Shown: positions 3,713-63,347 of the stretch, piece after piece
Layout of the letters: each line of letters begins with the position of its first letter
How positions within the stretch are numbered: position 1 is the stretch's first letter
Source: an uncultured Bacilli bacterium
Lineage (GTDB): Bacteria > Bacillota_I > Bacilli_A > RF39 > UBA660
Length of the DNA stretch: 64,000 nt
Assembly: GCA_947626095.1 (NCBI GenBank)
Contig: CANQQV010000005.1
Coordinates: 1-64,000, forward strand
Direction of reading: 5' to 3'
Position numbers and translations under genes: made by a program
Notes under the pieces: model-generated
Told to the model about the DNA's origin: nothing
Databases searched by the model: none
Seen by the model: only the letters and a program-made list of their open reading frames with translations

Positions 3713-3982
3713 TTATTCTTTCTTTTGTGACAATATTATTAATTCAGTACCGTTTCTTATGTCTGTTTCGCGAATTATACTATTATTTGAATAAACTTCA
3801 TTAGTTACTTTATTTATTAATATAAATTCATTTTTTAAATTAATACTTATATCGCATAAATCAGATACACATTTCATTACTAATTTAGTAATTTTCCATA
3901 CTAGATAATTTGCGGGAATATAGATATCAAAAACTTTACCAAATTCAGGAGCATATAGCTTAATTAATATTTTATTCTTCAT
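3713..3982 (-). CDS. esaB: EsaB/YukD-like ubiquitin-fold T7SS protein
   Basis: 89 aa overlapping the essC stop; FDIYIP and IRETDIRNGTELII motifs. Confidence 0.8.
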   Translation of the reverse strand: MKNKILIKLYAPEFGKVFDIYIPANYLVWKITKLVMKCVSDLCDISINLKNEFILINKVTNEVYSNNSIIRETDIRNGTELIILSQKKE

Positions 3983-6900
3983 TTATATCGCTCCCATCTT
4001 CACTAACAAAATCAATTAGTTTTACTATTTTAGCAAAGCCATCTTCGATATAGAAACCGATATCGTTATTATATTCAAGAGAATACTCTTTATTATAACT
4101 GGATATTTTAAATAGTGATTGATCTGATGCACCACTACCTATCCATAGACCGTTTGTAACATTGAAAATTGATTTATACCATGAATCAAATTGATATTCT
4201 TTAATTTTGCCTGCTTCTTCTACTATAATAATCGGTATTTTTTCATGTTTTTTGCATTTATCAAAGAATTCTTCAAGACTCTTATTGTTGTCGAGTTTTT
4301 TCACAAATTTGTCTAAGCCATAAATCATTATAGCGACTGGTGTTTCATTGTTGGTAGATATTCTTTGTTCAACATATTCATCTAGTTTTTTTATTACTTC
4401 CTCAAAATTATCATTAAAGTAATTTGAAGTATTGGCTTTTTCTGTTTCTAAAGCTTTTACTCCATCTATTAGGATTGTTCCTATTTTTAATTCTTTGAAG
4501 ACGCTTATTAAACTTTTTACGTAATTAATGGTATTAGCAATTTTGTTAGATGAAACTATATTTCCAACATTGGCATGATAATCGATCGTTAAAACATCTA
4601 AGTTTTCTTTTATAATTCCTATTGGAACGCTTTCAATAGTTGTAAGTTTTTCTCTAATATCATCTATTCTTACATGATCAGGTAAAGTTGGTATTCTTTG
4701 AGCATATGGAGGTTTAGTTGCTTTAATTTGGTTAATAAATTCGATTATGTAACTATTTAGTTCACCAACATCTTCAACTATAAACGCAGTTTGGAATTCA
4801 TGAATTCCATCATTATTTAACATACCTCTTCCTGGTGTATCTTGTGGAGTTTGTTTTGTTTTACCATTTAAAGTATCTCCATATTCATAGGAATCCTTAA
4901 GTCTTAATGCATAAGTATTGGTTATATTCTGTGTTACTTTTGAAGGGGTACTACCAAGTCCATTAGCTGTTAGAATATAAATAATTCCGTATCTAGCTGA
5001 ATCACGTAATAGTTCTGGCATTTCTTCATAAATTGATTCAATACTTTCTTTAGCTGTATCATAATTATTAAAGATTATTACTTTTAGTGGTAATTTGTTG
5101 CCACTATTTTTTATATAGTTAACATAGTCACCACCAAAATCAACAAATAATTTTTTTCTTTTGGCTGTTTCTTCATTAATCATTTTAATTAAATTGGTAT
5201 ATTTTTCAGTTTCGCCATCAAATACCATACCACCAAAATGAGGTAATGCTGCAAACATTCTTAGTGACTCTGATCCATAATCTACAGTGTAGAAATTTAT
5301 CTCACTTGCTGTATGATGTTTACATGCCGAATAGATTATCGCATTTAATAATTGTTCTCTTTCAGAGCCATCAGTACCATAGATAACTGTATTTCCGTTT
5401 TCAAGGAAGTCATATAAAACGATTCCTTGCTCTTGTAATTCTGGGGCATCATATTCACCAATTACAGCAGTTACATTGTATGGTGTATGTGTAATATTGT
5501 ATTTTTGTTCTACTTGATCAACTAGGATTACTTGTGGAACATTATCTAACCATAAACGTTTAGCATATTTATTAGTTTGACCAGCTACTTTTATTATTTC
5601 TTGCATAACAGCAGCAAGTTGTTCTCCTTGAGCTTCTTTTTTGGTGTCGCCGCCTTGCTCTTTTATCGTTTTAATTACTTGACCATTATTATCAATGAAA
5701 TTGATACTACGATCTATTTGTTTTTGAATTGTATCTGATGGATAATATTTAGCACCTGCCCAACCTGATTGCCCAAGTTCAAATATCTCATCCATTCCGA
5801 CTTGAAGATAGAAACGACCACTCTGTTTTAATAAAGCGGCATCTGGTTTTTTAATCATTTCATTACTATCACTAGCATCTGCAACTTTTAAACATACTCT
5901 AAATTTAGTATTAGACCAAATTTGTTCATTAACAACACCAGTTGGTTTTTGAGTTGCTAGAATTAAGTGAACTCCTAATGAACGACCTATACGAGCTACA
6001 CTTATTAAATTATCCATAAAATCTGGTTGTTGACTTTTTAACTCAGCAAATTCATCGGCAATTAGGAATAAATGAGGAATTGGTTCTTTTAATTTACCCT
6101 CATGATAAAAATTTTGATACTTATAAATATCTATTGTACTTTCACCAAGTTGATCTCTGGCTTCATTGAATTTTGCTTGTCTTCTTTTAACTTCTGAATC
6201 AATACTTACTAAGGTTCTATTCATTTCTGATTTATCTAAGTTGGTTATAGTACCAGCCAAATGTGGTAACTTAACCCCAGTTAATTTATTTTCAAAAGCG
6301 AAAGCTAAACCTCCACCTTTATAATCGATTAAAATAAAGGCAACATCTTCAGGGCTATAATTCATAGACATTGATAAAATATAAGTAATAATAAATTCTG
6401 ATTTACCTGAACCAGTAGTACCAGCAATTAAACCGTGTGGTCCATGGAATTTTTCATGCAAATCTAAGTACATTAGATTACCTTCTTCATCAACTCCGAC
6501 CTCGGCTTTTAAAGATTTAGTTGAATCGTTACTATTCCATCTATTTAAAACATTTAATTGTTCTACTTTACCAACTTGTTCCATTTCAAGGAATTCAATT
6601 GCATCTGGTAATTTAGCAGCAGCGCCCTCTATTTCTACTGGTATATTAGATAGGTTTCTAATAATACCCATCATATTAATGTTATAATTTATTTCATCAT
6701 GAAAATTAATTATTTCAGCTTTTTCAAACGAATTTTTTAAAATACCTGATGAACCTTCATTTAAATTTATGAAATTAAAACATTTACTTGGTAGTTTATC
6801 CAATTCATTTTCAATAATAATTGTACTATAACCAACGTTATTATCTAGTTCAACTAATTCTTTAAAGAAATCTAGTTTTTTATAGGCTGGATAATTATCG

Positions 6901-8552
6901 CAAATGATTAAATAATAAGGTTTTAATTCAGTTATAGGTATATTGCCTTCACTAGCTATACTTGTTTTATAGCTAAGTTCAGGTCCTAAATATGATGATA
7001 GAATTCTTGCTTCATCTAGATTAGTAGCAAAGAATCTAACATTTTTGTCATTACTAAAACAATAATTGCTATATTTTAAGTAATCCCATCTTTTAGCTTT
7101 TTCACTATTAGTAAAAACTACTATTTTTAATTCATCATAGCAGTAAAATGTCATAAATTGTAACAATATGTTGTCCATTAAACCATAGCTTTTTCTTTCA
7201 ATTCCCATTATGGCTGTTAAAAAGTTTTCATAAAATGAATATTCCAATGGGCAATTGTTGATGTATTTATATTGATCTATCATTTGTTCAGCCATTTCTT
7301 TTAAGCTATCGTTTTCGATAGTAAATCCTTCTTCAGGCCAATCAACATTTATTTTTAAAGGTACATCCCCTATTCCAACTCTTGCTGTTAAAAAATCTGA
7401 TTGTTCTACTCTTTTGCACCAAAAGTTATTTTTTTTAGAACTTATTATTTTAATACATCCCTCTGAATCGATTAAGTTATCATCTAAAATTGTCTTTTGC
7501 ATAACAAGTTCTTTTTTTAGTTCTGCTTCTTTTTCTTCTAAATATTTATTATATAGTTTTACAACTCTTTTTCTTTCTTCTTTAGCTAAATGCTCGTTAA
7601 AAGTTTTTGTTAAATTTGGCCATATTAAACTTGAAGCTAGCATTAAGACACCAGTTACTATTTGAGGCCAACTTTTAGCAAATGTTGTTGCACCACTAGA
7701 TATCTGAATTAAGGTATTTAACATGGTTGTACCTGATGTAGCAGCCATTGTTAGCATAGGTCCTGCAGTTAATAAAAGAGGCATTTTTTCGACTTCTTTT
7801 TCAGCTGGTGGTGGATCTATTTTAAGTTCTTTTTCCTCGATTAATCTTCTAATACGCGGTGATTTTGAAAAATAATCTTTCTTGGCATATATATCTATTT
7901 CTTTAACATCTTTGTTTTCATATTTATCTGTTTTGACTTGAAAATTAGCTAATCCAGCCGATGCTAAATTTATAATTATTGAATTAAAAGGATTATTGAC
8001 AATTATTGTGTTTTTTAAAAACATTATTTTTAGGCCGAATATATTTAGTACATCGCCGATGTTTATTATTGTAGTCTGTTCATTTACTCTTTCACTATTT
8101 ATATATGATAAAATTGATAAATTACTATTCATTACAAGTTGTTCATTAATCATTTTTATTTCACATACGACACCTGTAATATAAGCGAATTGATAAGGCA
8201 TGTTACATTCTGGAGCATTACCAATTATTAAATCAAGGACTTGATTATACGAATAAATGGCAAAGTTAGTTTCTAAAGAGGATGTTGCTATTAATAAATA
8301 TGTTATATCTTCATTTTTCAAGAGATAAAAGTCATTTTCTTTTAAGATTCTTTCATTTACTGTTTTATTATCATAGATAAGTAGGGTATCTTCATGGCCT
8401 TTTATTACCCAATTATTGTCTACAGCTTCTATATTGACTAATTTTTCTTCACTATTTAAATCTTTGCCAAACATATAACTACCTGATATTTGATTAGGTA
8501 AAGTATATTCATTGGCTTTTTCTGGTGTGTATATTGTTACCTTCATAGACAT
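3972..8552 (-). CDS. essC: Type VII secretion ATPase EssC (FHA domains, two TM helices, three FtsK/SpoIIIE domains)
   Basis: 1526 aa; FSKSPRIRR, HGPHGLIAGTTGSGKSE, LIDYKGGG, IADEFAEL, RIGRSLGVHLILATQKP. Confidence 0.95.
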   Translation of the reverse strand: MSMKVTIYTPEKANEYTLPNQISGSYMFGKDLNSEEKLVNIEAVDNNWVIKGHEDTLLIYDNKTVNERILKENDFYLLKNEDITYLLIATSSLETNFAIYSYNQVLDLIIGNAPECNMPYQFAYITGVVCEIKMINEQLVMNSNLSILSYINSERVNEQTTIINIGDVLNIFGLKIMFLKNTIIVNNPFNSIIINLASAGLANFQVKTDKYENKDVKEIDIYAKKDYFSKSPRIRRLIEEKELKIDPPPAEKEVEKMPLLLTAGPMLTMAATSGTTMLNTLIQISSGATTFAKSWPQIVTGVLMLASSLIWPNLTKTFNEHLAKEERKRVVKLYNKYLEEKEAELKKELVMQKTILDDNLIDSEGCIKIISSKKNNFWCKRVEQSDFLTARVGIGDVPLKINVDWPEEGFTIENDSLKEMAEQMIDQYKYINNCPLEYSFYENFLTAIMGIERKSYGLMDNILLQFMTFYCYDELKIVVFTNSEKAKRWDYLKYSNYCFSNDKNVRFFATNLDEARILSSYLGPELSYKTSIASEGNIPITELKPYYLIICDNYPAYKKLDFFKELVELDNNVGYSTIIIENELDKLPSKCFNFINLNEGSSGILKNSFEKAEIINFHDEINYNINMMGIIRNLSNIPVEIEGAAAKLPDAIEFLEMEQVGKVEQLNVLNRWNSNDSTKSLKAEVGVDEEGNLMYLDLHEKFHGPHGLIAGTTGSGKSEFIITYILSMSMNYSPEDVAFILIDYKGGGLAFAFENKLTGVKLPHLAGTITNLDKSEMNRTLVSIDSEVKRRQAKFNEARDQLGESTIDIYKYQNFYHEGKLKEPIPHLFLIADEFAELKSQQPDFMDNLISVARIGRSLGVHLILATQKPTGVVNEQIWSNTKFRVCLKVADASDSNEMIKKPDAALLKQSGRFYLQVGMDEIFELGQSGWAGAKYYPSDTIQKQIDRSINFIDNNGQVIKTIKEQGGDTKKEAQGEQLAAVMQEIIKVAGQTNKYAKRLWLDNVPQVILVDQVEQKYNITHTPYNVTAVIGEYDAPELQEQGIVLYDFLENGNTVIYGTDGSEREQLLNAIIYSACKHHTASEINFYTVDYGSESLRMFAALPHFGGMVFDGETEKYTNLIKMINEETAKRKKLFVDFGGDYVNYIKNSGNKLPLKVIIFNNYDTAKESIESIYEEMPELLRDSARYGIIYILTANGLGSTPSKVTQNITNTYALRLKDSYEYGDTLNGKTKQTPQDTPGRGMLNNDGIHEFQTAFIVEDVGELNSYIIEFINQIKATKPPYAQRIPTLPDHVRIDDIREKLTTIESVPIGIIKENLDVLTIDYHANVGNIVSSNKIANTINYVKSLISVFKELKIGTILIDGVKALETEKANTSNYFNDNFEEVIKKLDEYVEQRISTNNETPVAIMIYGLDKFVKKLDNNKSLEEFFDKCKKHEKIPIIIVEEAGKIKEYQFDSWYKSIFNVTNGLWIGSGASDQSLFKISSYNKEYSLEYNNDIGFYIEDGFAKIVKLIDFVSEDGSDINEE

Positions 8553-13442: not shown

Positions 13443-14250
13443 AATGTACCTCCAATTGAGGATATGGAATACTAATATTATGTTTACCAAATTCAATTAA
13501 GACGATTTTATTAGCGTCCCTTTTAGCTTGCCATTGTTGATCTCTTTTACAAGAAAAACTAATTAAGTATTTAACGCATGATTCAGCTAAATCATTAACA
13601 CCTAAATATTTAACAGAATCCTTGTTAACATTTTCGATATTTTTAAACTTAGGTAAAATATCCTTGTTTATTATTTTTTCAATTGTTTCAACTGGTTGTT
13701 CATATGGCAAGCAAATATTATACAATACATTTTGCTCTTTTTGGGATAAATTGTTAATTTCCATTATATTACGATTGGCAATAACCATTATTTCACCATT
13801 GGCATTTTTTAATTTAGTAGTTTTTAAACCAAATTCTAATACTTCACCAGTAAAATTATTATAAGTTACGATATCGCCAACAATAAAATAATTTTCAGCA
13901 ATAATATTAATACCATTAATGATATCTTTAAAAGTATCTTGTAATGCTAAACCTAAGATGGTTCCAGCAATTCCTAGTCCAGTTATTAGGCCTTTTACAT
14001 TAACACCATAGATACTTAATATTGTTAAAGCGGCAATTATAACAATTAAATATTTAATAACATTTTTAAATAAGTTAGTAATAGTTTTGCGTTTTTTCTT
14101 TTCATAATCTACTTTACCATAGTTAATAACTTCTTCAAAAAGAATAACTAGAGTTTTATAGATAAAGTATGAAATAGAAAGCGTTATGACAACACCATAT
14201 ACTTCTTTTTTAGTTATTATATTTAATATTGCCTTAAGAAACTCGATCAT
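13432..14250 (-). CDS. Small-conductance mechanosensitive channel (MscS family)
   Basis: GLGIAGTILGLALQD, GEVLEFGLKTT, ISIPYPQ. Confidence 0.92.
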   Translation of the reverse strand: MIEFLKAILNIITKKEVYGVVITLSISYFIYKTLVILFEEVINYGKVDYEKKKRKTITNLFKNVIKYLIVIIAALTILSIYGVNVKGLITGLGIAGTILGLALQDTFKDIINGINIIAENYFIVGDIVTYNNFTGEVLEFGLKTTKLKNANGEIMVIANRNIMEINNLSQKEQNVLYNICLPYEQPVETIEKIINKDILPKFKNIENVNKDSVKYLGVNDLAESCVKYLISFSCKRDQQWQAKRDANKIVLIEFGKHNISIPYPQLEVHYEK

Positions 14251-15140
14251 TATTCACCATCCATGTTAATACCAAGGATTTCTAATATTCGATCTAAATC
14301 ACTATCAGAATCAAAAGGTATTTCTATTTTACGATTATTTATTTTGACTCTTGTGCCAATCTTTTCGCGCATTACACCTTCATACATATTGTATTTAGGA
14401 TTATAGATAGGAGTCCTTTTTATCTTATTAGTTTTAGGCATTTCAGCAGCACTTGTTAGTTTTTCGGTTTCACGTACGCTTAATCCTTCTTCGATTATTT
14501 TATTAGCTATTTCATCAATTTGTTCAGAGTCAGATAGTTTACTTAGAACACGAGCATGACCCATAGATATTTTACCTTCTTGAACATATTTTTTAGTTGT
14601 AGATGGAAGGCGTAATAAACCTAATAAATTAGTAATGTAGCTACGACTCTTACCAAATTTTTTAGCTACTTCTTCTTGAGTAAATTTATTATCTTCAATT
14701 ATCTTGTTAAAAGCTTCAGCTTCTTCAATTGGATTTAAGTCTTCACGTTGAATATTTTCTAGTAAAGCAACTTCCATCATTTCTTGATCGGTAAAATCTC
14801 TAACGATAGCAGGAATAGTTGTTTTACCAGCCATTTTAGAAGCTCTAGTTCTTCTTTCACCAGCGATTAATTCATAACCTTTGATACTTTTTTTAACGAT
14901 AATTGGTTGAATAACACCATGTTCTTTAATACTTTCAGCAAATTCTCTTAATGATTCTTCATCAAAGTCTTTACGAGGTTGATAAGGGTTACTACGTATT
15001 TCAGTTAGAGGGATTTCGATAATATCCCCTTCTTTGGTAGCATCATTAACTATTTTCTTTTCAAAGTTATCGAAATCAATTACTTCGTTTGAAAACAGTT
15101 GTTCTAGTCCTTTACCTAGGGCTTTTCTCTTACTCTCCAT
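14250..15140 (-). CDS. parB: Chromosome partitioning protein ParB/Spo0J
   Basis: KALGKGL, NPYQPR, AGERR, ENIQREDL, HTH KSRSYITN, SMGHAR. Confidence 0.96.
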   Translation of the reverse strand: MESKRKALGKGLEQLFSNEVIDFDNFEKKIVNDATKEGDIIEIPLTEIRSNPYQPRKDFDEESLREFAESIKEHGVIQPIIVKKSIKGYELIAGERRTRASKMAGKTTIPAIVRDFTDQEMMEVALLENIQREDLNPIEEAEAFNKIIEDNKFTQEEVAKKFGKSRSYITNLLGLLRLPSTTKKYVQEGKISMGHARVLSKLSDSEQIDEIANKIIEEGLSVRETEKLTSAAEMPKTNKIKRTPIYNPKYNMYEGVMREKIGTRVKINNRKIEIPFDSDSDLDRILEILGINMDGE

Positions 15141-19422: not shown

Positions 19423-20518
19423 TTAGTTCATTTTTAGAATAGATTCGATAAATGGTTTAATATCGCCATCTAAAACTTTATCGGCTTCAGCGGTTTCATA
19501 ACCAGAACGAGTATCTTTAACCATTTTATATGGTTCTAAGACATAACTTCTTATTTGACTACCGAAATCAATTCCTGTACTTATACCTTTTAATTTAGCT
19601 AGTTCTTGTTCCTTTTTCTCTTGTTCTAAATTAAATAATTTACTTTTTAAGACTTTCATAGCTTGTTCTTTATTTTGTAGTTGACTACGTTCATTTTGAC
19701 AAGTTACAACTATTTTACTAGGAAAGTGTGTAATTCTAACAGCTGATGGCGTGGTATTAACACCTTGACCACCATGTCCACTAGCACAATAAGTATCGAT
19801 TCTGATATCTTCTTCTTTGATTTCAATATTAATACTTTGATCTATTTCAGGTATAACGGAAACAGAAGCAAAGGAAGTATGACGGCGTTTATTAGAATCA
19901 AATGGGGATATTCTAACTAAACGATGAACGCCTTTTTCACATTTAAAATAGCCATATGCATAATTACCAGTAATATGTAAAGTGACTGATTTAAGGCCTG
20001 CTTCTTCACCAGCTTGTTCTTCCATTACTTCGTATTTAAAATCATTTTTATCACAGAATCTTTCATACATACGAAGAAGCATACTCGCCCAATCACAAGA
20101 CTCGGTACCACCAGCACCAGGATGAATTTCTAAGTAACAAGCAAAATTATCATATTCGCCGTTTAATAAAGTGTTTATTTCTAATTCGTTTATTTCATTA
20201 ATTAAGGTTGGTAAACTGGCTTCTATTTCATTTTTTAATTCTTCACTATAATCTAATTCTAGTAAATCAATTATTTCTTCATTATCTTTTATTTTTTGAC
20301 TAAGATCTTTGTATGAACTAATTTCTTTTTTTAATAAGGATAGTTCTTGGTTAGTTTGATTAGCCGTATCAATATCATCCCAGAAATTAGGTTCATTCAT
20401 TTTACTTTCTAAAGAGGCAATTTGACTTTCTTTAGTAGTAATGTCAAAGTGACCTCCCAATAGTTTCTAATCTTGCACTTTGTTTATTTAATTCATTTTT
20501 TATTTCTTTTAATTCCAT
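19423..20518 (-). CDS. prfB: Peptide chain release factor 2 with programmed +1 frameshift
   Basis: ORF1 from ATG 20518 (MELKEIKNELNKQSARLETIGRSL) ends at GGGAGG-TCA-CTT-TGA-C (CTTTGAC at 20443-20449); the +1 frame has SPF and GGQ. Confidence 0.96.
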
Positions 20519-20581: not shown

Positions 20582-21955
20582 TTATTTTGCAATTGGTTTT
20601 ACCAATTCTTTCTTTAAGATACGATCATTGTTTTTAGAGCCAGTTCCTAAAGCTAATATTTCTGCACCGGTTTCATTTTCAAGCCAAGACAAATATTCTC
20701 TTTGATAGCGATCAAAATACATTTTATTAAAGTCACCAACTGTTGCAAAGAAATCATAATCTAGATGCTGAAAGAAATTTAGGTATAAACCATATGGTGA
20801 ATTAATACGACAGTTGTTTTTAAGTTTTTGAATATCTAAATCAAAGATACGGCGTTCCATCTTAGTAACAGAAGTTTGTTCTGATTGATCAATAATTGTA
20901 TTAGGTGGAAAATCACTATCAACCATAGGTAATTCAATAATAGCGCTTTCATAAATGTCTTCCCCTTTAGATTTATGATATAGTCTTTCTAATTCTAAAG
21001 CTTCTAGTAATGTTATGGTAGTTAAATCTTTTTGACGAAAGTTAGGACCAAATAGTTGTTTTAAATACATAGATGGACATTTAGTAAGTAATTTTTTGAT
21101 GTAAGTATAATTAATATGATGATTGAAACACTCAACATCGCCTTCACACGGATACTGACCAAACATGGAAGATAAATTTACTTGCATCCAAGTTAGTTTA
21201 GCACCTGTACCATAATCACCAGTATAATGATATTCGCCACTAGGAGTAACATTATTGATACGAATAGGAAATGGTCTTATAACCATAATTGTTTCTAAAA
21301 GACGTTCAGCAGAAATGCCACTATCGGCTAGTAATTGAGTTGTTGAAACATTACGACTTGTAACATATGGATAGTTACCACTATGATTTAAGTCTAAATC
21401 ACATCCTTGAGCTCCCTCTAATAAGACATATTCATTAGGATTATCAAGATGACTATATAAACGATCTAACCACTCATCATTAGAACAAACAACTAGATCT
21501 TCATAGGATTTAAAAAATTGGAGGTTTTCGTCACGAATGATTTTGGCCATTGAGACAGCACCACAGCCTTTATTAGTAGAACCAGATTTAATATGAGTTT
21601 TTTCGTAGTCTTTATGAGATTGTTCAATAAGAGGTACTAGTTCATGAACATATATTTTACGACCATTTAGAAAATGGCGAACATTTTGGTATTCTTCTTT
21701 TATGACAGCCATATCAATAGCTGAGCCGGGGCCAATAAATAATTCAGTATGAGGATTAACACAAGAAACAGGAATATTTCTAAATAAAGTACGATGGCCT
21801 TGTTCATCAACAAAAGTATGACCAGCATTAGGCATACAGTTAGTAATAGCAGCACCAAGGTTTATATTTTTGTCAGTAGCTATTTCACCAACAACTTTTG
21901 CTTTACCACAACTACCGGCAGCTCCATCAATAACAGAAATGACATTCTTTAACAT
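20582..21955 (-). CDS. purZ: Adenylosuccinate-synthetase superfamily protein of the PurZ (2-aminoadenylosuccinate synthase) type
   Basis: GSCGKAK (Ser in place of the PurA catalytic Asp of GDEGKG), MPNAGHT, EGAQG, YPYVTSR, FPIRI, TSVTKMERRIF, LNFFQH; these resemble phage PurZ rather than PurA motifs. Start 21955 (ATG) or 21964. Confidence 0.8.
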   Translation of the reverse strand: MLKNVISVIDGAAGSCGKAKVVGEIATDKNINLGAAITNCMPNAGHTFVDEQGHRTLFRNIPVSCVNPHTELFIGPGSAIDMAVIKEEYQNVRHFLNGRKIYVHELVPLIEQSHKDYEKTHIKSGSTNKGCGAVSMAKIIRDENLQFFKSYEDLVVCSNDEWLDRLYSHLDNPNEYVLLEGAQGCDLDLNHSGNYPYVTSRNVSTTQLLADSGISAERLLETIMVIRPFPIRINNVTPSGEYHYTGDYGTGAKLTWMQVNLSSMFGQYPCEGDVECFNHHINYTYIKKLLTKCPSMYLKQLFGPNFRQKDLTTITLLEALELERLYHKSKGEDIYESAIIELPMVDSDFPPNTIIDQSEQTSVTKMERRIFDLDIQKLKNNCRINSPYGLYLNFFQHLDYDFFATVGDFNKMYFDRYQREYLSWLENETGAEILALGTGSKNNDRILKKELVKPIAK

Positions 21956-21987
21956 AAAAACCACTACTTTCTTAAGTAATGGTTTTT
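21956..21987 (-). terminator. Hairpin/terminator after the Ig-repeat gene, overlapping the purZ-like translation initiation region
   Basis: Minus strand AAAAACCATTACTT-AAGA-AAGTAGTGGTTTTT immediately followed by the ATG. Confidence 0.6.
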
Positions 21988-22035: not shown

Positions 22036-25000
22036 TTATATTTTAAATATTTTTTCCTTATATACTTTTCTAATAATTGAAATAAGTGGTAACATAAACA
22101 TTAATATTATAATAAATCTAGCAAAATAACCAGTGATTGGATTTTGGGGTTTATCTTCTTCAGGAGGTTGAGTTTCTGAGTCATCTGGTTGTGGACCATT
22201 TAATGATTCAATAATAGTGATTTCCGTACTATCACTAATATCTGTTCCTTCGATTTCAACTGTTATAGTAACTGTTCCTAAATCATGAGCAATAATATTT
22301 CCTTTTGAATCTATAGTTGCGATTTTATCGTTATTACTTGACCATTTGATATTGGTTATTTCAAGATTTTCAGGATATACTTTATAAGTAAGTGTTAGGT
22401 TTTCATCTAATCTTAAAACATCTTGAGTTTTAACAATTTCAATTCTATCAGGAGTTTCTGAAACGGTTAATTGAACAGACGAACTAATATTATCTTCTTC
22501 GATGGTTCCGGTTATTTTTGTAGTTCCAACACTCAAAGCTGTAACAATTCCTTCTTCATTAATGATAGCGACTTGTTCATCACTACTCTGCCATTTTATA
22601 TCTTTATTGGTTACATCACTTGGCTCCATAATAAAGGTCATTTTTTGTTTGGCTCGTTTTGGTAAATTATATGTACCTGTTATTGTAAATTTATTAACAG
22701 CTTTTCTTACATAAACAAGACATTCACTCTTACTTTTATTATCTTTTGATATTGCTTTTATAATAGTTGTACCATTGTTTTTAGCTAAAATATTTCCTTC
22801 ATTATCAACTGTTGCGACTTCTTCATCACTTGAAGACCAATTGATATCTTCAAGAGTATACCCAGTTAATGTATAATCGACCTTTTGGCTTTCACCAGCT
22901 TTGATTTGGTAATTTGTTTTATTGAAGGTTATTTTTTTTGTTTCATCGTTTGTTGGTTTATTTAAGACAGATACAATAACGTTTTCTTCGATATTATTAT
23001 GTGATGTTAATTTTATTGTTGTATTACCTGGGGCGACAGCAGTAATTTGTCCTTGTTCATTTACAGTAGCGATTCTTGGTGTAGAACTTGTAAAATTGAT
23101 TACTTTATTACTAGCCGTTGTTGGTAATACTTGATATTCAATATTAGCTTGATCACCGACATATAAGACATAGTTTTTCTTTGGGATGGCTATTTTAGTA
23201 ACTTGAGTTGTAACATTTACTTTCACACTAGCTGTAACGCTTCCATCACTAGTTGATGCAGTAATTGTGGTTGTTCCATTTTGTAAAGCTCTAACTATGC
23301 CAGTGTTACTAACCGTAGCTATGTTACCATCTTGACTATGCCAAATTACATTTTTGTCAGTAGCAGTAGTTGGAGTGATTTGAACTTTTAATGTTTGAAA
23401 GTCATTAACGTTCATATTTAGTTCAGATGGGACAATTGATAATGATTTAACTTTTGTTATGACTCTTACTACACAAGTTGCTGATAAATTACCATTTTCT
23501 GTTGTTGCAGTTATAATGGCTGTACCATTATTTATGCCAGTTACTTTTCCGGTTTGATCTACTGTGGCAATTGTTGCATTATTAGTACTCCATCTAATGT
23601 TTTTATTAGTTATATTGGCTGGGGTAATTGTTGCTATTAAATTGAAAGTATTAGTTCTTTCCAAAGTATAATCAGTATAATTAAGTTTTATGCTTGTAGC
23701 ATTGTCGGTGACGTTAACTACACAATTAGCAGTCTTATTATTTGATGTACTAGCTGTAATTGTGGTTGTTCCTTTACTAAGAGCTGTTATTTTACCTGTA
23801 CTATCTACCATAGCAACACCCTGATTTGAACTAGTCCAATTAACTGTTTGGTTACTTGCTGTTGAAGGTAGGACATTAGCGGTTAAATTATAAACGTCTT
23901 CGACATTTAAAGTTAGTTGATTTTGACTTAGAGTAATACCAGTTGGTTCAGTTGTAACTGTTACAGTACACTGAGCTTCTTTACCATTAGATGATGTAGC
24001 TTTGATAACAGCAACTCCATTAGATATAGCACTAACTACTCCGTTATTATTAACAGAAGCTACTCCCGCATTTGTAGATGACCATGTAATTGTTTTATCA
24101 AGAGCTGTAGTTGGACTAACAGTGGCAACTAAAGTAAACTGACTTCCAGCATTCATATTTAAAGATGTTTGATTTAAAGTTACTGAGTTGACTATTTTGG
24201 CATATTCGGCTGCTGGTGTTTCTATATCAACTACTACATTTGTACAATTATTGTAGTAATCGCAGACTTGAACTGTAGGATTCTTAGTTGTTGGGGAGAA
24301 TGTTTTAGTTACAGTAGTTGTATTAGATTGAGTCCAACCATCTGGAGCTTTAATTTCATCTTTAGATGATAATGTAATTTTAATATTATTACCACTTAAT
24401 TCTGGTTTTTGAGTTATTTTTGGTTTAAATGTCGCTTCGGATGTAGTATAGAATTTATAACCATAAGTGTTATCTGTTTTTCTTGTGGCATAACCAAGGT
24501 ATAATTTATTGCCTTTAAAACTTAGTGATTCAATTTCACCAATTTGGTCACTTATATGAAAGACTTTAACAACTTTACCAAAATTAACGTTAGGTGTTCC
24601 ATTTTGATTTAATTTGGCATTATATACAATTACGTCTGATGTGGCATGAGGTTCATAACAATACATTGAGTATTTGTGATATCCTGCATTTCCTGGAGTA
24701 CACGAATTCGTTGATTGATAAACAATTGTATATAAATATCCATTATGATATTCAATACCACCAGTAACACCTAAGGCAATTGAATCGATAGAATATAATC
24801 TTTGTTGAAAATCTTTGGAAACAATATAATATCTTCTGGCATAACTTCCTATATATTTATCATGGAATTTATCGTATGTTATTCCAGTGTAAGCGATAGG
24901 AGTTTTAATAACTGAACTGTAACTTAAATCCGAGTCATTATTATATAGTGAAACATAGTTGTATTTATATGGACCAACTACTAAAATCTTCTTTAGTTTT

Positions 25001-26106
25001 GTATCATATGTTAAATCGTTACCATGGCCACCAACTATTTTTCGATAATTTAAACCTTTATTGCCATTAGTTACTATACCGGCAGTAACTTGTTCAGTTG
25101 AATAAGTACCTGATTTATTTAGGTTATAACTTAATAATAAACCTTGGGCTTTTTCATTTTTGTTGGAATAAAATATTAAATTATCACCAGCCCAAGTAAC
25201 TCCTTGAAGTTGAGTATATTTACCTTTTTCTTTGTTCTTATCATCTTTTAAAGCTTGACTTAATTCTTTAACTGGAGCAGTATCAATCATACCGTTTAAG
25301 ATAGATTCATTAGAATAAGTATATTCTTTATCAACATAGCCAAAATTAGCATAATTGGTTAACTTTATATTGGTTTTACTGGCTTGCTTGCTACTAAATA
25401 TTTTCTTATTCAAAGTTATAACTGGTCTAATTCCTCTAGAGCCGGTTTTTTTCGCATAATTAATATTACCAGTATAAGTAACGCATAAGGCGTAATTACT
25501 ATCGTCAGTAGCAGAATTATTCGTCCAATATCCTGGAGGACTAGCTTTTTCTTTACCATTTAAATATTGTTTATTATTTAAAAAATAGAATGAGTTAATA
25601 TAAGTAAATGATACTTTTACATCTGGGGAAATAGCTGAATAACCATCAGTTTTTTTGGCAGGTGATTTACTAGTATCAATTTTTAATATGTTATATATTT
25701 GTTTTTTAGTTATAATAGATGGAGTTAATTTTTGACCTTTTTCATCAACCCAATTTAATTTATTTAATTCGGTTTTTCTATCTGTCCAAGAAGCAAAACC
25801 AATATCGTGGTCCAACATAACTTTAACTTGAGAATTGCTTGTATCACTATCCTCTATGACAAAGAAACGGTAGCAATTGACATTATTATAAGGTGTCCAG
25901 TAATTACTACAAGTAGTACCTTTAATAGGGTTATAATATACATATTCGCCGATTCTATAAACTGGATATGTTTCAGAAGACAAAAAATCTTTGATTCTTG
26001 TAATTACAACAGATATTTGATTTCTAAATATAAAAGAAAATATTATAGCAATCATTACAATTAACAGCATTGTAAGGGAAAGAAATGTTCTTTTTTTACT
26101 TCTCAT
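22036..26106 (-). CDS. Large surface protein: signal/TM, N-terminal domain ending RGIRPVITL, propeller-like region, about eight Big_2 Ig repeats, NPITG sortase-like motif and TM
   Basis: Repeats of WxSSxxxVAxVxxxGxVxAxxxGxxxIxA; C-terminal PQNPITG, hydrophobic stretch and basic tail. Confidence 0.85.
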   Translation of the reverse strand: MRSKKRTFLSLTMLLIVMIAIIFSFIFRNQISVVITRIKDFLSSETYPVYRIGEYVYYNPIKGTTCSNYWTPYNNVNCYRFFVIEDSDTSNSQVKVMLDHDIGFASWTDRKTELNKLNWVDEKGQKLTPSIITKKQIYNILKIDTSKSPAKKTDGYSAISPDVKVSFTYINSFYFLNNKQYLNGKEKASPPGYWTNNSATDDSNYALCVTYTGNINYAKKTGSRGIRPVITLNKKIFSSKQASKTNIKLTNYANFGYVDKEYTYSNESILNGMIDTAPVKELSQALKDDKNKEKGKYTQLQGVTWAGDNLIFYSNKNEKAQGLLLSYNLNKSGTYSTEQVTAGIVTNGNKGLNYRKIVGGHGNDLTYDTKLKKILVVGPYKYNYVSLYNNDSDLSYSSVIKTPIAYTGITYDKFHDKYIGSYARRYYIVSKDFQQRLYSIDSIALGVTGGIEYHNGYLYTIVYQSTNSCTPGNAGYHKYSMYCYEPHATSDVIVYNAKLNQNGTPNVNFGKVVKVFHISDQIGEIESLSFKGNKLYLGYATRKTDNTYGYKFYTTSEATFKPKITQKPELSGNNIKITLSSKDEIKAPDGWTQSNTTTVTKTFSPTTKNPTVQVCDYYNNCTNVVVDIETPAAEYAKIVNSVTLNQTSLNMNAGSQFTLVATVSPTTALDKTITWSSTNAGVASVNNNGVVSAISNGVAVIKATSSNGKEAQCTVTVTTEPTGITLSQNQLTLNVEDVYNLTANVLPSTASNQTVNWTSSNQGVAMVDSTGKITALSKGTTTITASTSNNKTANCVVNVTDNATSIKLNYTDYTLERTNTFNLIATITPANITNKNIRWSTNNATIATVDQTGKVTGINNGTAIITATTENGNLSATCVVRVITKVKSLSIVPSELNMNVNDFQTLKVQITPTTATDKNVIWHSQDGNIATVSNTGIVRALQNGTTTITASTSDGSVTASVKVNVTTQVTKIAIPKKNYVLYVGDQANIEYQVLPTTASNKVINFTSSTPRIATVNEQGQITAVAPGNTTIKLTSHNNIEENVIVSVLNKPTNDETKKITFNKTNYQIKAGESQKVDYTLTGYTLEDINWSSSDEEVATVDNEGNILAKNNGTTIIKAISKDNKSKSECLVYVRKAVNKFTITGTYNLPKRAKQKMTFIMEPSDVTNKDIKWQSSDEQVAIINEEGIVTALSVGTTKITGTIEEDNISSSVQLTVSETPDRIEIVKTQDVLRLDENLTLTYKVYPENLEITNIKWSSNNDKIATIDSKGNIIAHDLGTVTITVEIEGTDISDSTEITIIESLNGPQPDDSETQPPEEDKPQNPITGYFARFIIILMFMLPLISIIRKVYKEKIFKI

Positions 26107-26268: not shown

Positions 26269-27291
26269 CTATTTAGTAAAATGACCGTAACGTGATAAAG
26301 GTTCATATTTAATTTTCTTTAAATTTAATTTTTTAATAATATTTTGTGGTTCACATAATTCATACCAACTAGATGGTACTTCATAATCACCTGAGTTAGT
26401 TTTAGCATAGATAGCTAATGGGTTTTTTAGACCAATAGCATAAGATATCTGAATTTCACACCAATTATATTTTGAATTGGTTTTAACTACTTGTTTAGCT
26501 AGTTCTCTGGCCATATAGGCACCTGATCTATCAACTTTGGTTGGATCTTTACCAGAAAAAGCACCACCACCGACTGAAGCAAATGACTGGTAAGTATCAA
26601 CAACAATTTTACGGCCAGTTAAACCGGTATCGCCTTCAAAACCACCAATTAAAAAACGACCTGTTGGATTAATAATAAATTCTTCGATTTCAACATTGTA
26701 TTTTTGGCATATTTTTAAACATAAATCCTTTATTATTTGATCAGTTTCTGCACGATTTTCTTCAGTATTTTGATAGCAGATAGTAAATGTTTTTATTTTT
26801 TGTAATTTGTTATTTTCATAAAGGCCGGTTATTTCAGCCTTACCATCAGATTTAAAACGAGAATCTTTAATTCTTAATCTATCGTATTCCTGACTTAGTT
26901 CCTGTAAGATAACCATGGCAGTTGGGAGATATTTATCTGTATCTTGACAAGCGTAACCAAACATCATGCCGTTGTCACCGGCACCTCCTACTACGTTGTT
27001 TGTTCCAAGAGCTATATCTGGGCTTTGTAATCCTAAGTTATTAATTATTTCATAATTGGTATTATATCCAACATCTTTTAAAACTCTTTTGACTACTTTT
27101 TCGATATTTATTTGGGCTTTACTAGTTACTTCACCACTAATAAATATCTTGCTTTTTCCGCCCATTACTTCAATACCACATCGGCTATCAGTATCTCCTT
27201 TAAGATAAGCATCTAATAGGGCATCGCTAATTTGGTCACATACTTTATCTGGGTGACCTCTAAAGACTATTTCATTGGTGAATAATTTCAT
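26269..27291 (-). CDS. metK: S-adenosylmethionine synthetase
   Basis: GHPDKVCDQISD, GAGDNG, GLTGRKIVVDTY, GGGAFSGKDPTKVDRS. Confidence 0.96.
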   Translation of the reverse strand: MKLFTNEIVFRGHPDKVCDQISDALLDAYLKGDTDSRCGIEVMGGKSKIFISGEVTSKAQINIEKVVKRVLKDVGYNTNYEIINNLGLQSPDIALGTNNVVGGAGDNGMMFGYACQDTDKYLPTAMVILQELSQEYDRLRIKDSRFKSDGKAEITGLYENNKLQKIKTFTICYQNTEENRAETDQIIKDLCLKICQKYNVEIEEFIINPTGRFLIGGFEGDTGLTGRKIVVDTYQSFASVGGGAFSGKDPTKVDRSGAYMARELAKQVVKTNSKYNWCEIQISYAIGLKNPLAIYAKTNSGDYEVPSSWYELCEPQNIIKKLNLKKIKYEPLSRYGHFTK

Positions 27292-42584: not shown

Positions 42585-42800
42585 CTATTTAGCAGCTTCT
42601 TGATCATAACCATATCTACGGTTGAACTTTTCAACTGAACCAGTCTTTTTAGCCTTACCTTGTTTTCCTGTATAGAATGGATGACATTCACTACATACTT
42701 CAATATGGATTTCATCTTTAGTTGATTTAGTCATGAATGTAGCTCCACAAGCACAAGTTACTTTGCAATCTTTAAGTTCTGGATGGATATCTTTTTTCAT
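42585..42800 (-). CDS. rpmE: 50S ribosomal protein L31 (Zn-binding type)
   Basis: [21 protein letters not shown]. Confidence 0.97.
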
Positions 42801-42914: not shown

Positions 42915-43436
42915 TTACTTCTTTTTGAAGATAGAAATAACTTTTCCTGTCATAAAAACGATAGAATCACTATTTTTAGTAGCAACATTTTTAAAAACAG
43001 CTTTGAAACCAACAGTTAAAGCAGAAATTACAGCGGTAACTAAGATAGTTGTGATAGTAGTACTAAAGTGGAAATAATTAGCAATAGATAGAGTTAGGAC
43101 AGCACCTAAACTACCACTTACAATACCACATATATCTCCAATAACATCATTACATACTGAAGATACTTTAGTTGAATTTTTTAACAAGGATATAGCTTCT
43201 TTAGCACCTTTTAATTTTTTAGTAGCTTTAGCATGAAGATTAGCTTCTTTACTAGTTAAAACAGCAACACCTATCATATCAAAGATAATACCAATTGAAA
43301 TAACAACTAAGATAATTATTGTTAAGACTATTTCATTAAAAGTATCAGATATTACAGTAGAAATACCACTAAATAAGATAGATAAAATAAAAGATAATAA
43401 AAAAACTTTATATATCCAGTTAACATTACTCTTCAT
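42915..43436 (-). CDS. oapA: OLE-associated protein A (DUF21/CNNM-like membrane protein)
   Basis: GIIFDMIGVA, GAKEAI, CNDVIGDICGIVSG, ALTVG motifs; directly downstream of an OLE-like RNA. Confidence 0.85.
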   Translation of the reverse strand: MKSNVNWIYKVFLLSFILSILFSGISTVISDTFNEIVLTIIILVVISIGIIFDMIGVAVLTSKEANLHAKATKKLKGAKEAISLLKNSTKVSSVCNDVIGDICGIVSGSLGAVLTLSIANYFHFSTTITTILVTAVISALTVGFKAVFKNVATKNSDSIVFMTGKVISIFKKK

Positions 43437-43470
43437 ATTAACTCTCCTTATAAAGTAATTTAATAAAAAC

Positions 43471-43928
43471 TTATGGTATATTATAAATTAATTTTACGGC
43501 TTTGGTCGAGTTGAATTTCTCTAGCTCCTACCATCGATTACTCTCTGGCGATTTCTCTTTAAAGGATCCAATCGAATGTTACCGGTTCGATTACTCGATT
43601 ACCACTTAGTCCGTACCTCAAACTTTATAATACATACACCCTAGAGAATTTCTCTATCATATAGGGATTATTCTTATTCGCTTTTGCAATTACAATTTCA
43701 ATTACTATCCCTTGTAATCACTCACGACATGCACTAGTTATATCTTCACGGCAGACGGGATAAAAGGAACTCTTTATATGCCATTATAATTTGTCCTTAA
43801 ATCTTAAATCATATACCCACCCGATTCTGGGCGAAACAAGCAAGTATACAAAGTGTCATATCAGCACAATTGGTAGATTTTTAGCCCCACCTTCAAATAA
43901 TTTTTATGACTAGGATAATGCACCATAA
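43471..43928 (-). ncRNA. ole: OLE RNA (compact, ~458 nt)
   Basis: GC-richer, ORF-free region; terminal helix TTATGGTGCATTAT/ATAATATACCATAA; OLE-like blocks GGTGCA..CTAGTCA, TTTGAAGGTGGGGCTAAAAATC, GCCCAG, AATGGCAT, TTGCAAAAG, CGGACTAAGTGGTAATC, GCCGTAA; upstream of oapA. Confidence 0.87.
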
Positions 43929-43936
43929 CGATTAAA

Positions 43937-43965
43937 AGTTTATCAAATCTAGGAAAAAATGTCAA
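43937..43965 (-). promoter_or_regulatory. Sigma-A promoter of ole-oapA
   Basis: TTGACA-17 bp-TAAACT with extended TG, ending about 8 nt before the OLE terminal helix. Confidence 0.75.
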
Positions 43966-52496: not shown

Positions 52497-54017
52497 TTAG
52501 TTGTCTTTATGTATTTGCATTGTAATTTGATAATTGTTATCAAAGTCGATTTCTTCAACATTAATGAAGAAACCTTTTTCGCCTAATCCTTCAATACAAG
52601 AACGAACTGTAGCAATTGCATCTTTTAAATCCATCTTACCTGGAGCGGCTGGTTTTTGACCATTATTCATTAGTTGATCTACAGCTTGCATTGGATCCAC
52701 TTCTTTTTCTTCTTTATTAGCTATTTCAATTTCTGGACTATTATCCATAACTGGAGTAAAGAATTTATTATTTGGATTACGATCAAAATCAGTATTTAAT
52801 GGAGCACCATTATATGGATTAATTGAACTATTAACGACTGGTTTAGGTGGTTCTGGTTTTGGCTCTTCTACTGGAGTTGGATTAGGATTATTATTCATAT
52901 TGATAAATGAATTACTTGGAGTTGGTGAATCAAATACTTCAAAAGTATTATTATTTTCAGCAACTGGAGTCATATTATTCATTGTATTATTCATTAGTTC
53001 TGTGGAATTCATAAAATTTGATTGTGGAGTTGTATTATTATCAAAAGTATTTGCCATATTAAAGTATTTATTTTGTTCTGAAGGTTGTTCAACGATACTT
53101 TCTGGTGGCATAATTGTACTTACAGAATTTGGTGTAGCAATATTAAATTCAGGAATCGTTGTTGCTTGAGTATATGGAGCTGGTTCTTCTAACGATTCTG
53201 GTTCATTTGATACTGGTTGAATATTATTTGATACTGGTGTTTCCTCTAATGTTTCTAATGTTTCTAGTTGCTCTGGAGGATTATTTTTAATTCGATTAGC
53301 TTCACTAATATCGATTGAATTAGCTTTGATATCTTCGATACTTGGAATTGATGATACTAATGGAACTTCACCAGTACCTTCATCTTCTTCATCGGCACTA
53401 ACCATTTGATTAGCTTCATTTAATTTTTTTAATTCTAAGTCTAATTGTCTAACTGTTAAACGTTCATTAATTATACGATGTAGCCATTCTCTTTGGGCAT
53501 TCTTGTCTTCTAAAGATAACAAAGTACGAGCATGACGTTCAGATATTTTTTCTTCAAGTAAGGCTTGTTGTACTTCTTCGTCTAAGTTTAATAAACGTAA
53601 TTTATTAGCAATAGATGGTTGAGATAAACCCATTCTTTTAGCTAGTTGTTCTTGAGTAAGATAACCTTTATCAAGTAAACTTTTATATGAACGAGCTTCC
53701 TCAATAGCTGTTAAATCTCTTCTTTGAACATTTTCAACTAAAGCTACTTCGGCTGATTTATTATCATCGATATTAGCTATTACTGCTGGAACTGTAGTAA
53801 GACCAGCTATTTGAGCAGCTTTATATCTTCTTTCACCAGCAATTATTTCATATTTATCGCCTAATTTTCTTAATACTAATGGTTGGATAATACCATGTTC
53901 TCTAATAGAATCAGCAAGTTCTTTTAAACCTTGTTCATCGAATGAAAGTCTTGGTTGGAATCTATTAGGTATTATATCTTCAATATGTACTTGTAGTACG
54001 CCTGATTCTAGATTCAT
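52497..54017 (-). CDS. noc: Nucleoid occlusion protein Noc-like (ParB family) with a long disordered insertion
   Basis: PNRFQPR, AGERR, HTH SQPSIANKLRLL, SERHAR; Noc-type C-terminal domain; follows rsmG. Confidence 0.85.
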   Translation of the reverse strand: MNLESGVLQVHIEDIIPNRFQPRLSFDEQGLKELADSIREHGIIQPLVLRKLGDKYEIIAGERRYKAAQIAGLTTVPAVIANIDDNKSAEVALVENVQRRDLTAIEEARSYKSLLDKGYLTQEQLAKRMGLSQPSIANKLRLLNLDEEVQQALLEEKISERHARTLLSLEDKNAQREWLHRIINERLTVRQLDLELKKLNEANQMVSADEEDEGTGEVPLVSSIPSIEDIKANSIDISEANRIKNNPPEQLETLETLEETPVSNNIQPVSNEPESLEEPAPYTQATTIPEFNIATPNSVSTIMPPESIVEQPSEQNKYFNMANTFDNNTTPQSNFMNSTELMNNTMNNMTPVAENNNTFEVFDSPTPSNSFINMNNNPNPTPVEEPKPEPPKPVVNSSINPYNGAPLNTDFDRNPNNKFFTPVMDNSPEIEIANKEEKEVDPMQAVDQLMNNGQKPAAPGKMDLKDAIATVRSCIEGLGEKGFFINVEEIDFDNNYQITMQIHKDN

Positions 54018-63303: not shown

Positions 63304-63347
63304 AGAGTATAAGGTTGGTAAATTTTGGAAAGAGGGAGGTTTTGGAT

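Follow-up and report, generated by a model that had tools for sequence, protein, structure and literature searches.

OLE RNAs usually measure about 600 nt and contain roughly 25 helices. Full-length representatives, such as the RNA of Halalkalibacterium halodurans and the 577-nt RNA of Clostridium acetobutylicum solved by cryo-EM (PMC12286853), follow a two-domain plan and have oapA immediately downstream. In the dimer described in the accessible passages of PMC12265935, domain 1 makes four contacts, namely the A-rich loops of P4, two P5.1/P6.1 kissing loops and, where the arch ends, the palindromic loops of P9. The contacts given in those passages do not include P7 or P8; the passages call the role of the conserved P9 nucleotides and of the arch unknown. 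Kretsch et al. 2025 (PMC12286853, likewise available in part) report a similar dimer in which, however, L7 joins L5 and L6 in bridge B2, a placement that bears on the cost of losing P7.

Shortened forms of this RNA have already been described. In a search of GTDB, Fernando and Breaker (2024, mSphere, PMC11332333) sorted OLE RNAs as full-length, as variant 1 or as variant 2. According to the portions of that paper at hand, variant 1 has shorter P7, P8 and P9, is often without the OapB site at the tip of P13 and is commonly found in TANB77. Variant 2 has lost P7 and P8 entirely, keeps most of the highly conserved OLE nucleotides and is commonly found in RF39, which the same portions describe as a clade of reduced gut symbionts. 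They also describe the variant clades as largely devoid of OapB and OapC and consider a pressure towards shrinkage of the RNA possible. From such shortened variants, the accessible text of PMC12265935 (2025) has argued that P7 and P8 are dispensable. Besides these variant papers, no further reports on shortened OLE RNAs were found in the literature searched.

Here we describe an OLE RNA encoded in a stretch of bacterial DNA of 64,000 nucleotides, which was analysed as a whole and is called the window below. At 458 nt this RNA falls short of the usual size and number of helices. It departs from OLE in size and not in family, and the published variant classes depart in the same way.

The ole-oapA locus and its surroundings

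Scanning the whole window with Rfam 15 (cmscan) returned a whole-model match to OLE (RF01071) at 43942..43457 on the minus strand, with 239.1 bits (E 2.8e-66) against a gathering score of 50. The match is untruncated and covers model positions 1-616 of 616. Together with the helix map, it places the RNA from P1 to P1 at 43471..43928 of the minus strand (458 nt), or at 43457..43942 with its flanks. The closing helix P1 is formed by UUAUGGU (43928..43922) and ACCAUAA (43477..43471) with seven of seven pairs. The blocks CUAGUCA, CUAAAAAU, GCCCA, AAUGGCAU, GCAAAAG, ACUAAGUGGUAAUC, UAAAGNGAAA and GACCNAAGCC are all found in the window RNA. An initial annotation, made from the letters of the DNA, had placed a closing terminal helix and several OLE-like conserved blocks between 43471 and 43928, and it had proposed a search with the Rfam OLE model, the absence of a hit counting against it. 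Helix and blocks are both borne out, the latter by 239.1 bits over the full model, and the search gave a significant match. The two positions named are the exact outer ends of P1, and the strand, which had been left unstated, is minus.

A candidate sigma-70-like promoter, recognised by consensus match, lies upstream of the RNA (43937..43965, minus strand). It consists of a -35 element TTGACA (43965..43960), a 17-nt spacer and a TG-extended -10 element TAAACT (43942..43937), with 10 of 12 consensus matches, and leaves 8 nt between its end and P1. The AT-rich DNA of this locus holds many promoter-like sites (16 in the surrounding 1.8 kb, compared with 9.1 +/- 3.2 in shuffles), so the promoter, which the initial annotation had also noticed, is supportive only. 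The gene oapA (42915..43436, minus strand) starts 34 nt past P1, and its ATG is preceded at 7 nt by the ribosome-binding site AAGGAG (43449..43444). No terminator was predicted in the 34-nt gap between OLE and oapA. The product is a membrane protein of 173 aa that carries the DxxxD motif as NDVIGDICG, in agreement with the earlier claim of an oapA with an intact DVIGD next to the RNA. Compared with the Pfam family CNNM (PF01595), the window OapA reaches 25.4 bits, under the cut-off of 28.4; many of its close homologues carry a precomputed PF01595 label. NCBIfam models gave no match to the window OapA.

The upstream neighbour of OLE is murA, which is intact, as is oapA. When 59 ORFs of the 64-kb window, all but two of them of at least 70 aa, were scanned with Pfam, no L7Ae-like or KOW-type small protein was found that would represent OapB or OapC. 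Directly downstream of oapA sits rpmE (42800..42585), preceded by an L31-Firmicutes leader (RF03156, 42808-42840, minus strand, 38.9 bits, above its gathering score of 33.3) and with a promoter-like site of its own. The order ole, oapA, L31 leader is also found in one of the public loci discussed below (L065).

The gene content of the window is Bacilli-like, with an RNA polymerase delta subunit of the low-GC type, ComK, SpoIID and SpoIIR. The presence of sporulation genes and ComK may be ill-suited to a highly reduced symbiont. The Rfam scan of the 64-kb window found no rRNA gene. The window includes the region of the replication origin, with rnpA, yidC, jag, mnmE, mnmG and rsmG followed by dnaA (60554) and dnaN, and with ComK at 63315. 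Two ParB-type proteins are encoded on the minus strand (52497-54017 and 14250-15140); one of them has 506 aa, of which about 300 residues past the ParB N-terminal and HTH parts are without a Pfam match at E 1e-5. A SAM riboswitch (RF00162, 27372-27455, minus strand, 64.6 bits) with one hairpin 17 positions shorter than the consensus lies upstream of metK (26269..27291). The divergent, PurA-like product of a 460-aa ORF (20582-21964, minus strand) matches adenylosuccinate synthetase (PF00709) only weakly and in part (E 7.9e-25, in two stretches, the best over residues 19-145); a second release-factor gene (19423..20460) lies next to it. Two very large ORFs occupy 3972-8552 and 22036-26106 of the minus strand; one is an FtsK/SpoIIIE-family ATPase of 1526 aa with two matched stretches, and the other a protein of 1356 aa with eight Big_2 Ig-like repeats.

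Retained helices and missing elements

Helix names were assigned by helix order and from published descriptions, and all coordinates in this section refer to the minus strand. In the helix map, each retained helix pairs in the window RNA. P2 (43637..43917), so named from helix order, joins UAUCCUAG (43917..43910) to CUAGGGUG (43644..43637) with eight of eight pairs. It covaries at column pair 30/351 (GC 2, UA 2, CG 1, AU 1) in an alignment of seven compact OLE sequences, which are the window RNA and the six relatives described below. Next to P2, P3 (43908..43903/43663..43658) and P3.1 (43901..43895/43673..43667) span 43658..43908, and 12 of their 13 predicted pairs form. The accessible text of PMC12265935 gives 12 bp as the typical sum of the two, which are proposed to be a membrane-spanning helix.

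The P4 hairpin (43872..43891) bears the A-rich loop CUAAAAAU, which is invariant in all seven compact sequences and corresponds to dimer contact 1 of the cryo-EM models in the parts available of PMC12286853 and PMC12265935. The long-range helix P4a (43730..43868) pairs UGUGC (43868..43864) with GUGCA (43734..43730) in five of five positions and covaries at column pair 79/213 (GC 3, AU 3, GU 1). It encloses P5, P6 and a linker. P5/P5.1 (43809..43851) is a long hairpin with 17 of 17 pairs and a GCCCA loop as in the consensus, and the P6/P6.1 hairpin (43759..43803) likewise keeps the consensus loop AAUGGCAU. Just 5' of the 3' strand of P2 stands a small hairpin with a GAAAU-type loop (43645..43655), which is P10 by helix order.

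The 3' domain, P12-P15, is complete (43478..43633) by both the RF01071 alignment and the helix map. It includes P13 (43591..43571, GUAA loop), P14 (43570..43563 with 43529..43522) and P14.1 (43549..43530, GUAA loop). The loop of P13 is of the GNRA type in all seven compact sequences (GUAA, GCAA, GUGA or GAAA). Binding of OapB needs a single-nucleotide bulge in P13 (PMC7936274), in place of which the P13 of the window RNA has two mismatches.

Set against the Rfam consensus, whose P1-to-P1 length is about 585 positions, the window RNA is about 125 nt shorter. The Rfam alignment and an alignment of full-length OLE RNAs show that exactly four elements are gone, at model positions 198-241, 242-277, 309-358 and 424-435. 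The initial annotation had estimated the shortening at about 140 nt, which is about right, and had located most of it between AAUGGCAU, the loop of P6, and UUGCAAAAG, on the 3' side of P9; the RF01071 alignment agrees. The hairpin at model 198-241, P7 by order, is reduced from 44 positions to 10 nt, and the segment at model 242-277, whose hairpin (about 249-277) is P8 by order, from 36 positions to 10 nt; in the alignment of full-length OLE RNAs both positions are hairpins. The 80 consensus positions of the two (model 198-277, about 20 aligned nt) are thus replaced by an unpaired, poorly conserved linker of 18 nt (43735..43752), whose columns vary among the compact sequences.

P9 is reduced to a stub (43678..43727) with 4 bp (43727..43724/43681..43678) and 10 bp (43721..43712/43695..43686), all 14 of which pair. 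Its 16-nt loop (43711..43696) retains GGAU and UGAAA of the former internal loop. The distal arm, which corresponds to model 309-358 of the hairpin at 286-372 and in full-length OLE RNA has 5 + 15 bp with a GGCC loop at the tip, is absent, 50 positions being represented by 4 nt. Finally, the small 12-nt hairpin before P12 (model 424-435) is replaced by a 3-nt joint (43634..43636) with 11 positions deleted, and it is missing from all seven compact sequences.

The conserved blocks found in the window RNA are invariant or nearly so across the seven compact sequences, with the exception of the diverged GGGCACAUCGAUGAAG. This J4a/5 block is not conserved in the compact group; its consensus takes part in the kink-turn of OapC (PMC9723947 and PMC12286853, as far as their accessible text goes). 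Where the consensus has GAUGAAG and GUGGAGA, a UGAC/GUC(A) helix can be drawn (43858..43855/43756..43753), three of whose four pairs form in the window RNA. We infer from these letters that a short Watson-Crick helix may replace the OapC kink-turn region in the compact group. Some functions of compact OLE RNAs may differ, because the kink-turn-related GGGCACAUCGAUGAAG block is not conserved. The consensus AUCGAU block is not conserved in the compact group either.

Compact OLE RNAs and OapA proteins in public genomes

To place the length of the window RNA, one genome per species was scanned for a 22-base pattern of the 3' domain, which gave at least 120 stretches, 80 of them with full 1.5-kb flanks (individual loci are given L numbers). 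The resulting set is a sample and not a census, and is biased to exact matches of these 22 conserved 3'-domain bases. Length was taken as the distance from a 5' landmark, GGUGCA..CUAGUCA, to a 3' landmark, GACCUAAGCCGCAA, and could be read in 79 of the 80 loci, L072 being cut by the end of its contig. Among the 79 loci listed, the shortest distance is 431 and the longest 655; the median is 554, and the 5th percentile lies at 459. Adding the 27-nt offset of the window RNA, the median public OLE RNA among the loci listed has about 581 nt.

The landmark distance of the window RNA is 431, tied with L048 (431) as the shortest among the 79 measured loci listed. L047 (436), L043 (437), L065 (454) and L010 (460) belong to the same size class, L059 (478) and L009 (489) are intermediate, and the other 72 measured loci are at 517 or more. 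Thus, five of the 79 measured loci listed are at most 30 nt from the window RNA, and the same helices are missing from them. A further relative, L113, has flanks of 300 nt only and equals the window RNA in length from model position 48 on (model 48-616). The initial annotation had called the RNA unusually compact, and had held that a length within the normal range of known representatives would speak against it. The description is apt in that the RNA ties for the shortest of the 79 listed, and is weakened by the five loci of the same class, all within 30 nt, and by L113 over its readable part. The compact RNA therefore stands at the short extreme but is no singleton, since loci of similar size form a group.

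Rfam spans, taken for 20 of the loci, are in line with the landmark distances. The window RNA spans 486 nt (239 bits), and the compact relatives span 486 nt (L048, 232 bits), 491 nt (L047, 222 bits), 492 nt (L043, 232 bits), 509 nt (L065, 260 bits) and 515 nt (L010, 240 bits). The intermediate loci follow with 534 nt (L059, 289 bits) and 547 nt (L009, 306 bits), and L054, L028, L008 and L067 with 585-597 nt and 328-400 bits. The seven top-scoring loci span 573-627 nt and reach 477-551 bits. In the Clostridia MAG that holds L059, an RNase P class A RNA (RF00010, 2312-2640, plus strand, 259.8 bits) lies about 650 nt downstream of OLE.

The compact alignment comprises the window RNA, L113, L048, L047, L043, L065 and L010, and has a mean column identity of 79%; P7, P8 and the small hairpin are missing from all seven. 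The relatives come from public assemblies of different organisms and share 69-80% DNA identity with the window. L113 is the closest relative of the window OLE among the loci listed, with 80% identity over 661 nt. Relative to the window RNA, the insert in the distal part of P9 measures 0 nt in L113, 2 in L048, 9-10 in L047 and L043, and about 27-33 in L065 and L010. A consensus fold of the seven sequences has 138 pairs, 49 of them with compensatory double changes.

The nearest loci are titled Bacilli or Bacillota MAGs, apart from L113 (CAZJHG010000026.1), whose assembly bears the title "uncultured Muribaculaceae bacterium" (Bacteroidota), probably through a binning or labelling error; 24 out-of-phylum OLE hits of such a kind are reported in the accessible text of PMC11332333.

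The OapA proteins were aligned for 74 public loci and the window, leaving out L030, L037, L038 and L055, which yielded no ORF, as well as L003, where the ORF is not OapA, and L077, where it is short. The motif D[VLIM][VIM]GD is present in 75 of 75 aligned OLE-adjacent ORFs, window included. In a quick maximum-likelihood tree with midpoint rooting only, the OapAs of the six compact-OLE hosts lie on one side of a branch with SH-aLRT support of 96, nested in a set of 12 that includes intermediate OLE lengths (478-541). These six OapAs have 172-174 aa and are without the N-terminal extension of about 10 aa and the lysine/arginine-rich C-terminal tail of about 16 aa found in most others, both lengths being medians. 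Over the 74 loci, OLE length and OapA length correlate with a Spearman coefficient of 0.67, a raw value uncorrected for shared ancestry and based on mechanically picked start codons.

A protein search with the window OapA returned 2484 proteins at E 1e-10 or better. Among the best 120 of these 2484 matches are 119 other 90%-identity clusters, 66-94% identical to the query and all of 171-178 aa, which indicates that this OapA lineage is abundant in public data; the pairing of a compact OLE with an OapA homologue is established for the fetched loci only.

Relation to published variants and alternative readings

With full-length OLE RNA the window RNA shares the two-domain plan and an oapA immediately downstream, as well as P1-P6, the base of P9, P12-P15, the A-rich loop of P4 and the P5.1/P6.1 loops. 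It differs from it in being about 120-150 nt shorter, in the absence of P7, P8, the P9 arch with its GGCC kissing loop and the small hairpin, in the diverged J4a/5 block and in an OapA of 173 aa without N- and C-terminal extensions. With variant 1 it has in common that P7, P8 and P9 are reduced relative to full length. However, P7 and P8 are still present, if short, in variant 1, which has often lost the OapB site of the P13 tip; the RNA described here is without any P7 or P8 and retains a GUAA loop on P13, although two mismatches stand in place of the bulge.

The likeness to variant 2 is closer. P7 and P8 are lacking in both, the host of the window RNA, like those of variant 2, appears to be an uncultured low-GC, Bacilli-type gut organism, and no OapB or OapC gene is seen in the 64 kb of the window. 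The score of 239.1 bits would fall in the variant 2 bin of the accessible text (235 to <310 bits), although it comes from Rfam's different model and is only suggestive. Unlike variant 2 as described in the text at hand, which mentions neither feature, the window RNA has a P9 reduced to a 14-bp stub and is without the hairpin at model 424-435. That the distal arm of P9 and the small hairpin are lost completely may thus go beyond what the accessible passages on the published variants describe.

We favour the reading, at a probability of about 0.88 judged from sequence, that the locus is a functional ole-oapA operon whose naturally shortened OLE RNA belongs to a published variant class and matches variant 2, an assignment that depends on a sentence in the available portion of PMC11332333 and on our own naming of helices by order. 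Transcription would begin at the candidate promoter (43965..43937) and probably run on into oapA. The covariance model and the covariation show a predicted fold into two OLE domains. Domain 1 would consist of P3/P3.1, P4, P4a, P5, P6 and the P9 stub, and domain 2 of P1, P2, the small hairpin at 43645..43655 and the intact P12-P15. By analogy with Halalkalibacterium halodurans, OapA would bind the RNA and hold it at the membrane, and the OLE-OapA particle may help with alcohol, cold, Mg2+ and poor-carbon stress. The lineage would have lost peripheral parts, with P7 and P8 giving way to the 18-nt linker, P9 to 14 bp and a 16-nt loop, and the 12-nt hairpin disappearing. Of the four RNA-RNA dimer contacts in print, three retain consensus loops (the A-rich loop of P4 and the P5.1/P6.1 loops). 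The fourth, made by the palindromic P9 loop, cannot form as in the solved structures, because the P9 arm is absent from the window RNA and L113.

Alternatively, and we regard this as possible but doubtful, the window RNA and L113 could form a distinct, smaller subtype past variant 2, with no P9 arch or kissing loop, no small hairpin and a plain helix at the site of the OapC kink-turn. Such an RNA might function in monomeric form, or its dimer might be joined in another way, and it might have fewer protein partners. The two RNAs do stand at the extreme of the P9 insert series (0 nt), but the differences from L048, L047 and L043 amount to a few nucleotides, which is a continuum and not a separate class. 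The portions of PMC11332333 at hand mention a shorter P9 for variant 1 only and the small hairpin nowhere; these features may nevertheless already appear in a published figure. Three compact relatives, at 222-232 bits with the Rfam model, score below the cut-off of 235, which, the models being different, is only a hint that such RNAs were possibly omitted. The UGAC/GUC(A) helix stands where the consensus has GAUGAAG and GUGGAGA, yet the loss of the kink-turn is read from the letters only, and an AAUU palindrome in the 16-nt P9 loop of the window RNA and L113 might still make some loop-loop contact.

A decaying relic, that is, an OLE pseudogene that has suffered deletions and lost its function, would account for the loss of about 125 nt, for the alteration of some highly conserved consensus blocks and for one of the lowest Rfam scores in the sample (239 bits compared with 477-551 bits for the seven top-scoring loci, whose spans are at least 573 nt). 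We consider it very unlikely. Identical deletions with identical boundaries occur in six other organisms whose DNA is only 69-80% identical; the conserved loops, the whole 3' domain and oapA are intact, and a good candidate promoter is present. The preservation of 49 of 138 pairs through double changes also disfavours decay. Collapsed or mis-joined reads over GC-rich hairpins could in principle yield a shortened RNA as an assembly artefact, and many of the relatives are indeed metagenome-assembled genomes. However, the same architecture recurs in seven independent assemblies, the junctions are clean, with covarying structure around them, and the flanking murA and oapA are intact, so that this explanation is hardly credible. 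Relic and artefact were both rejected on the architecture common to seven assemblies, the compensatory changes and the intact oapA.

The initial annotation had seen in this RNA a natural minimal OLE that defines an indispensable core. The idea is sound but not new, since shortened variants and the dispensability of P7 and P8 are already published (PMC11332333, and PMC12265935 in its accessible part). The compact window RNA is a useful example from the short end of a published variant class and no discovery; variant classes having been reported in 2024, it opens no new question.

For the OLE family, natural deletions reveal which parts are optional. The window RNA and its relatives confirm the possible loss of P7 and P8, and they show that the P9 arch with its loop-loop dimer contact can be reduced until none of it is left; P3/P3.1, the loops of P4, P5 and P6 and the entire 3' domain are kept throughout. 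With the core kept and the periphery lost, a smaller RNA-OapA pair for structure determination and complementation could sensibly be drawn from the compact lineage. If the RNAs of the window and L113 are functional, the core task of OLE and OapA would require neither the fourth dimer contact nor the conserved nucleotides of P9 nor the kink-turn. We suggest only tentatively that the window RNA and L113 are among the smallest natural OLE RNAs, past variant 2. Were this true, an OapA without the basic C-terminal tail may have shrunk together with its RNA, and the two would offer a minimal RNA-protein pair with which the structure of the unresolved domain 2 could be studied.
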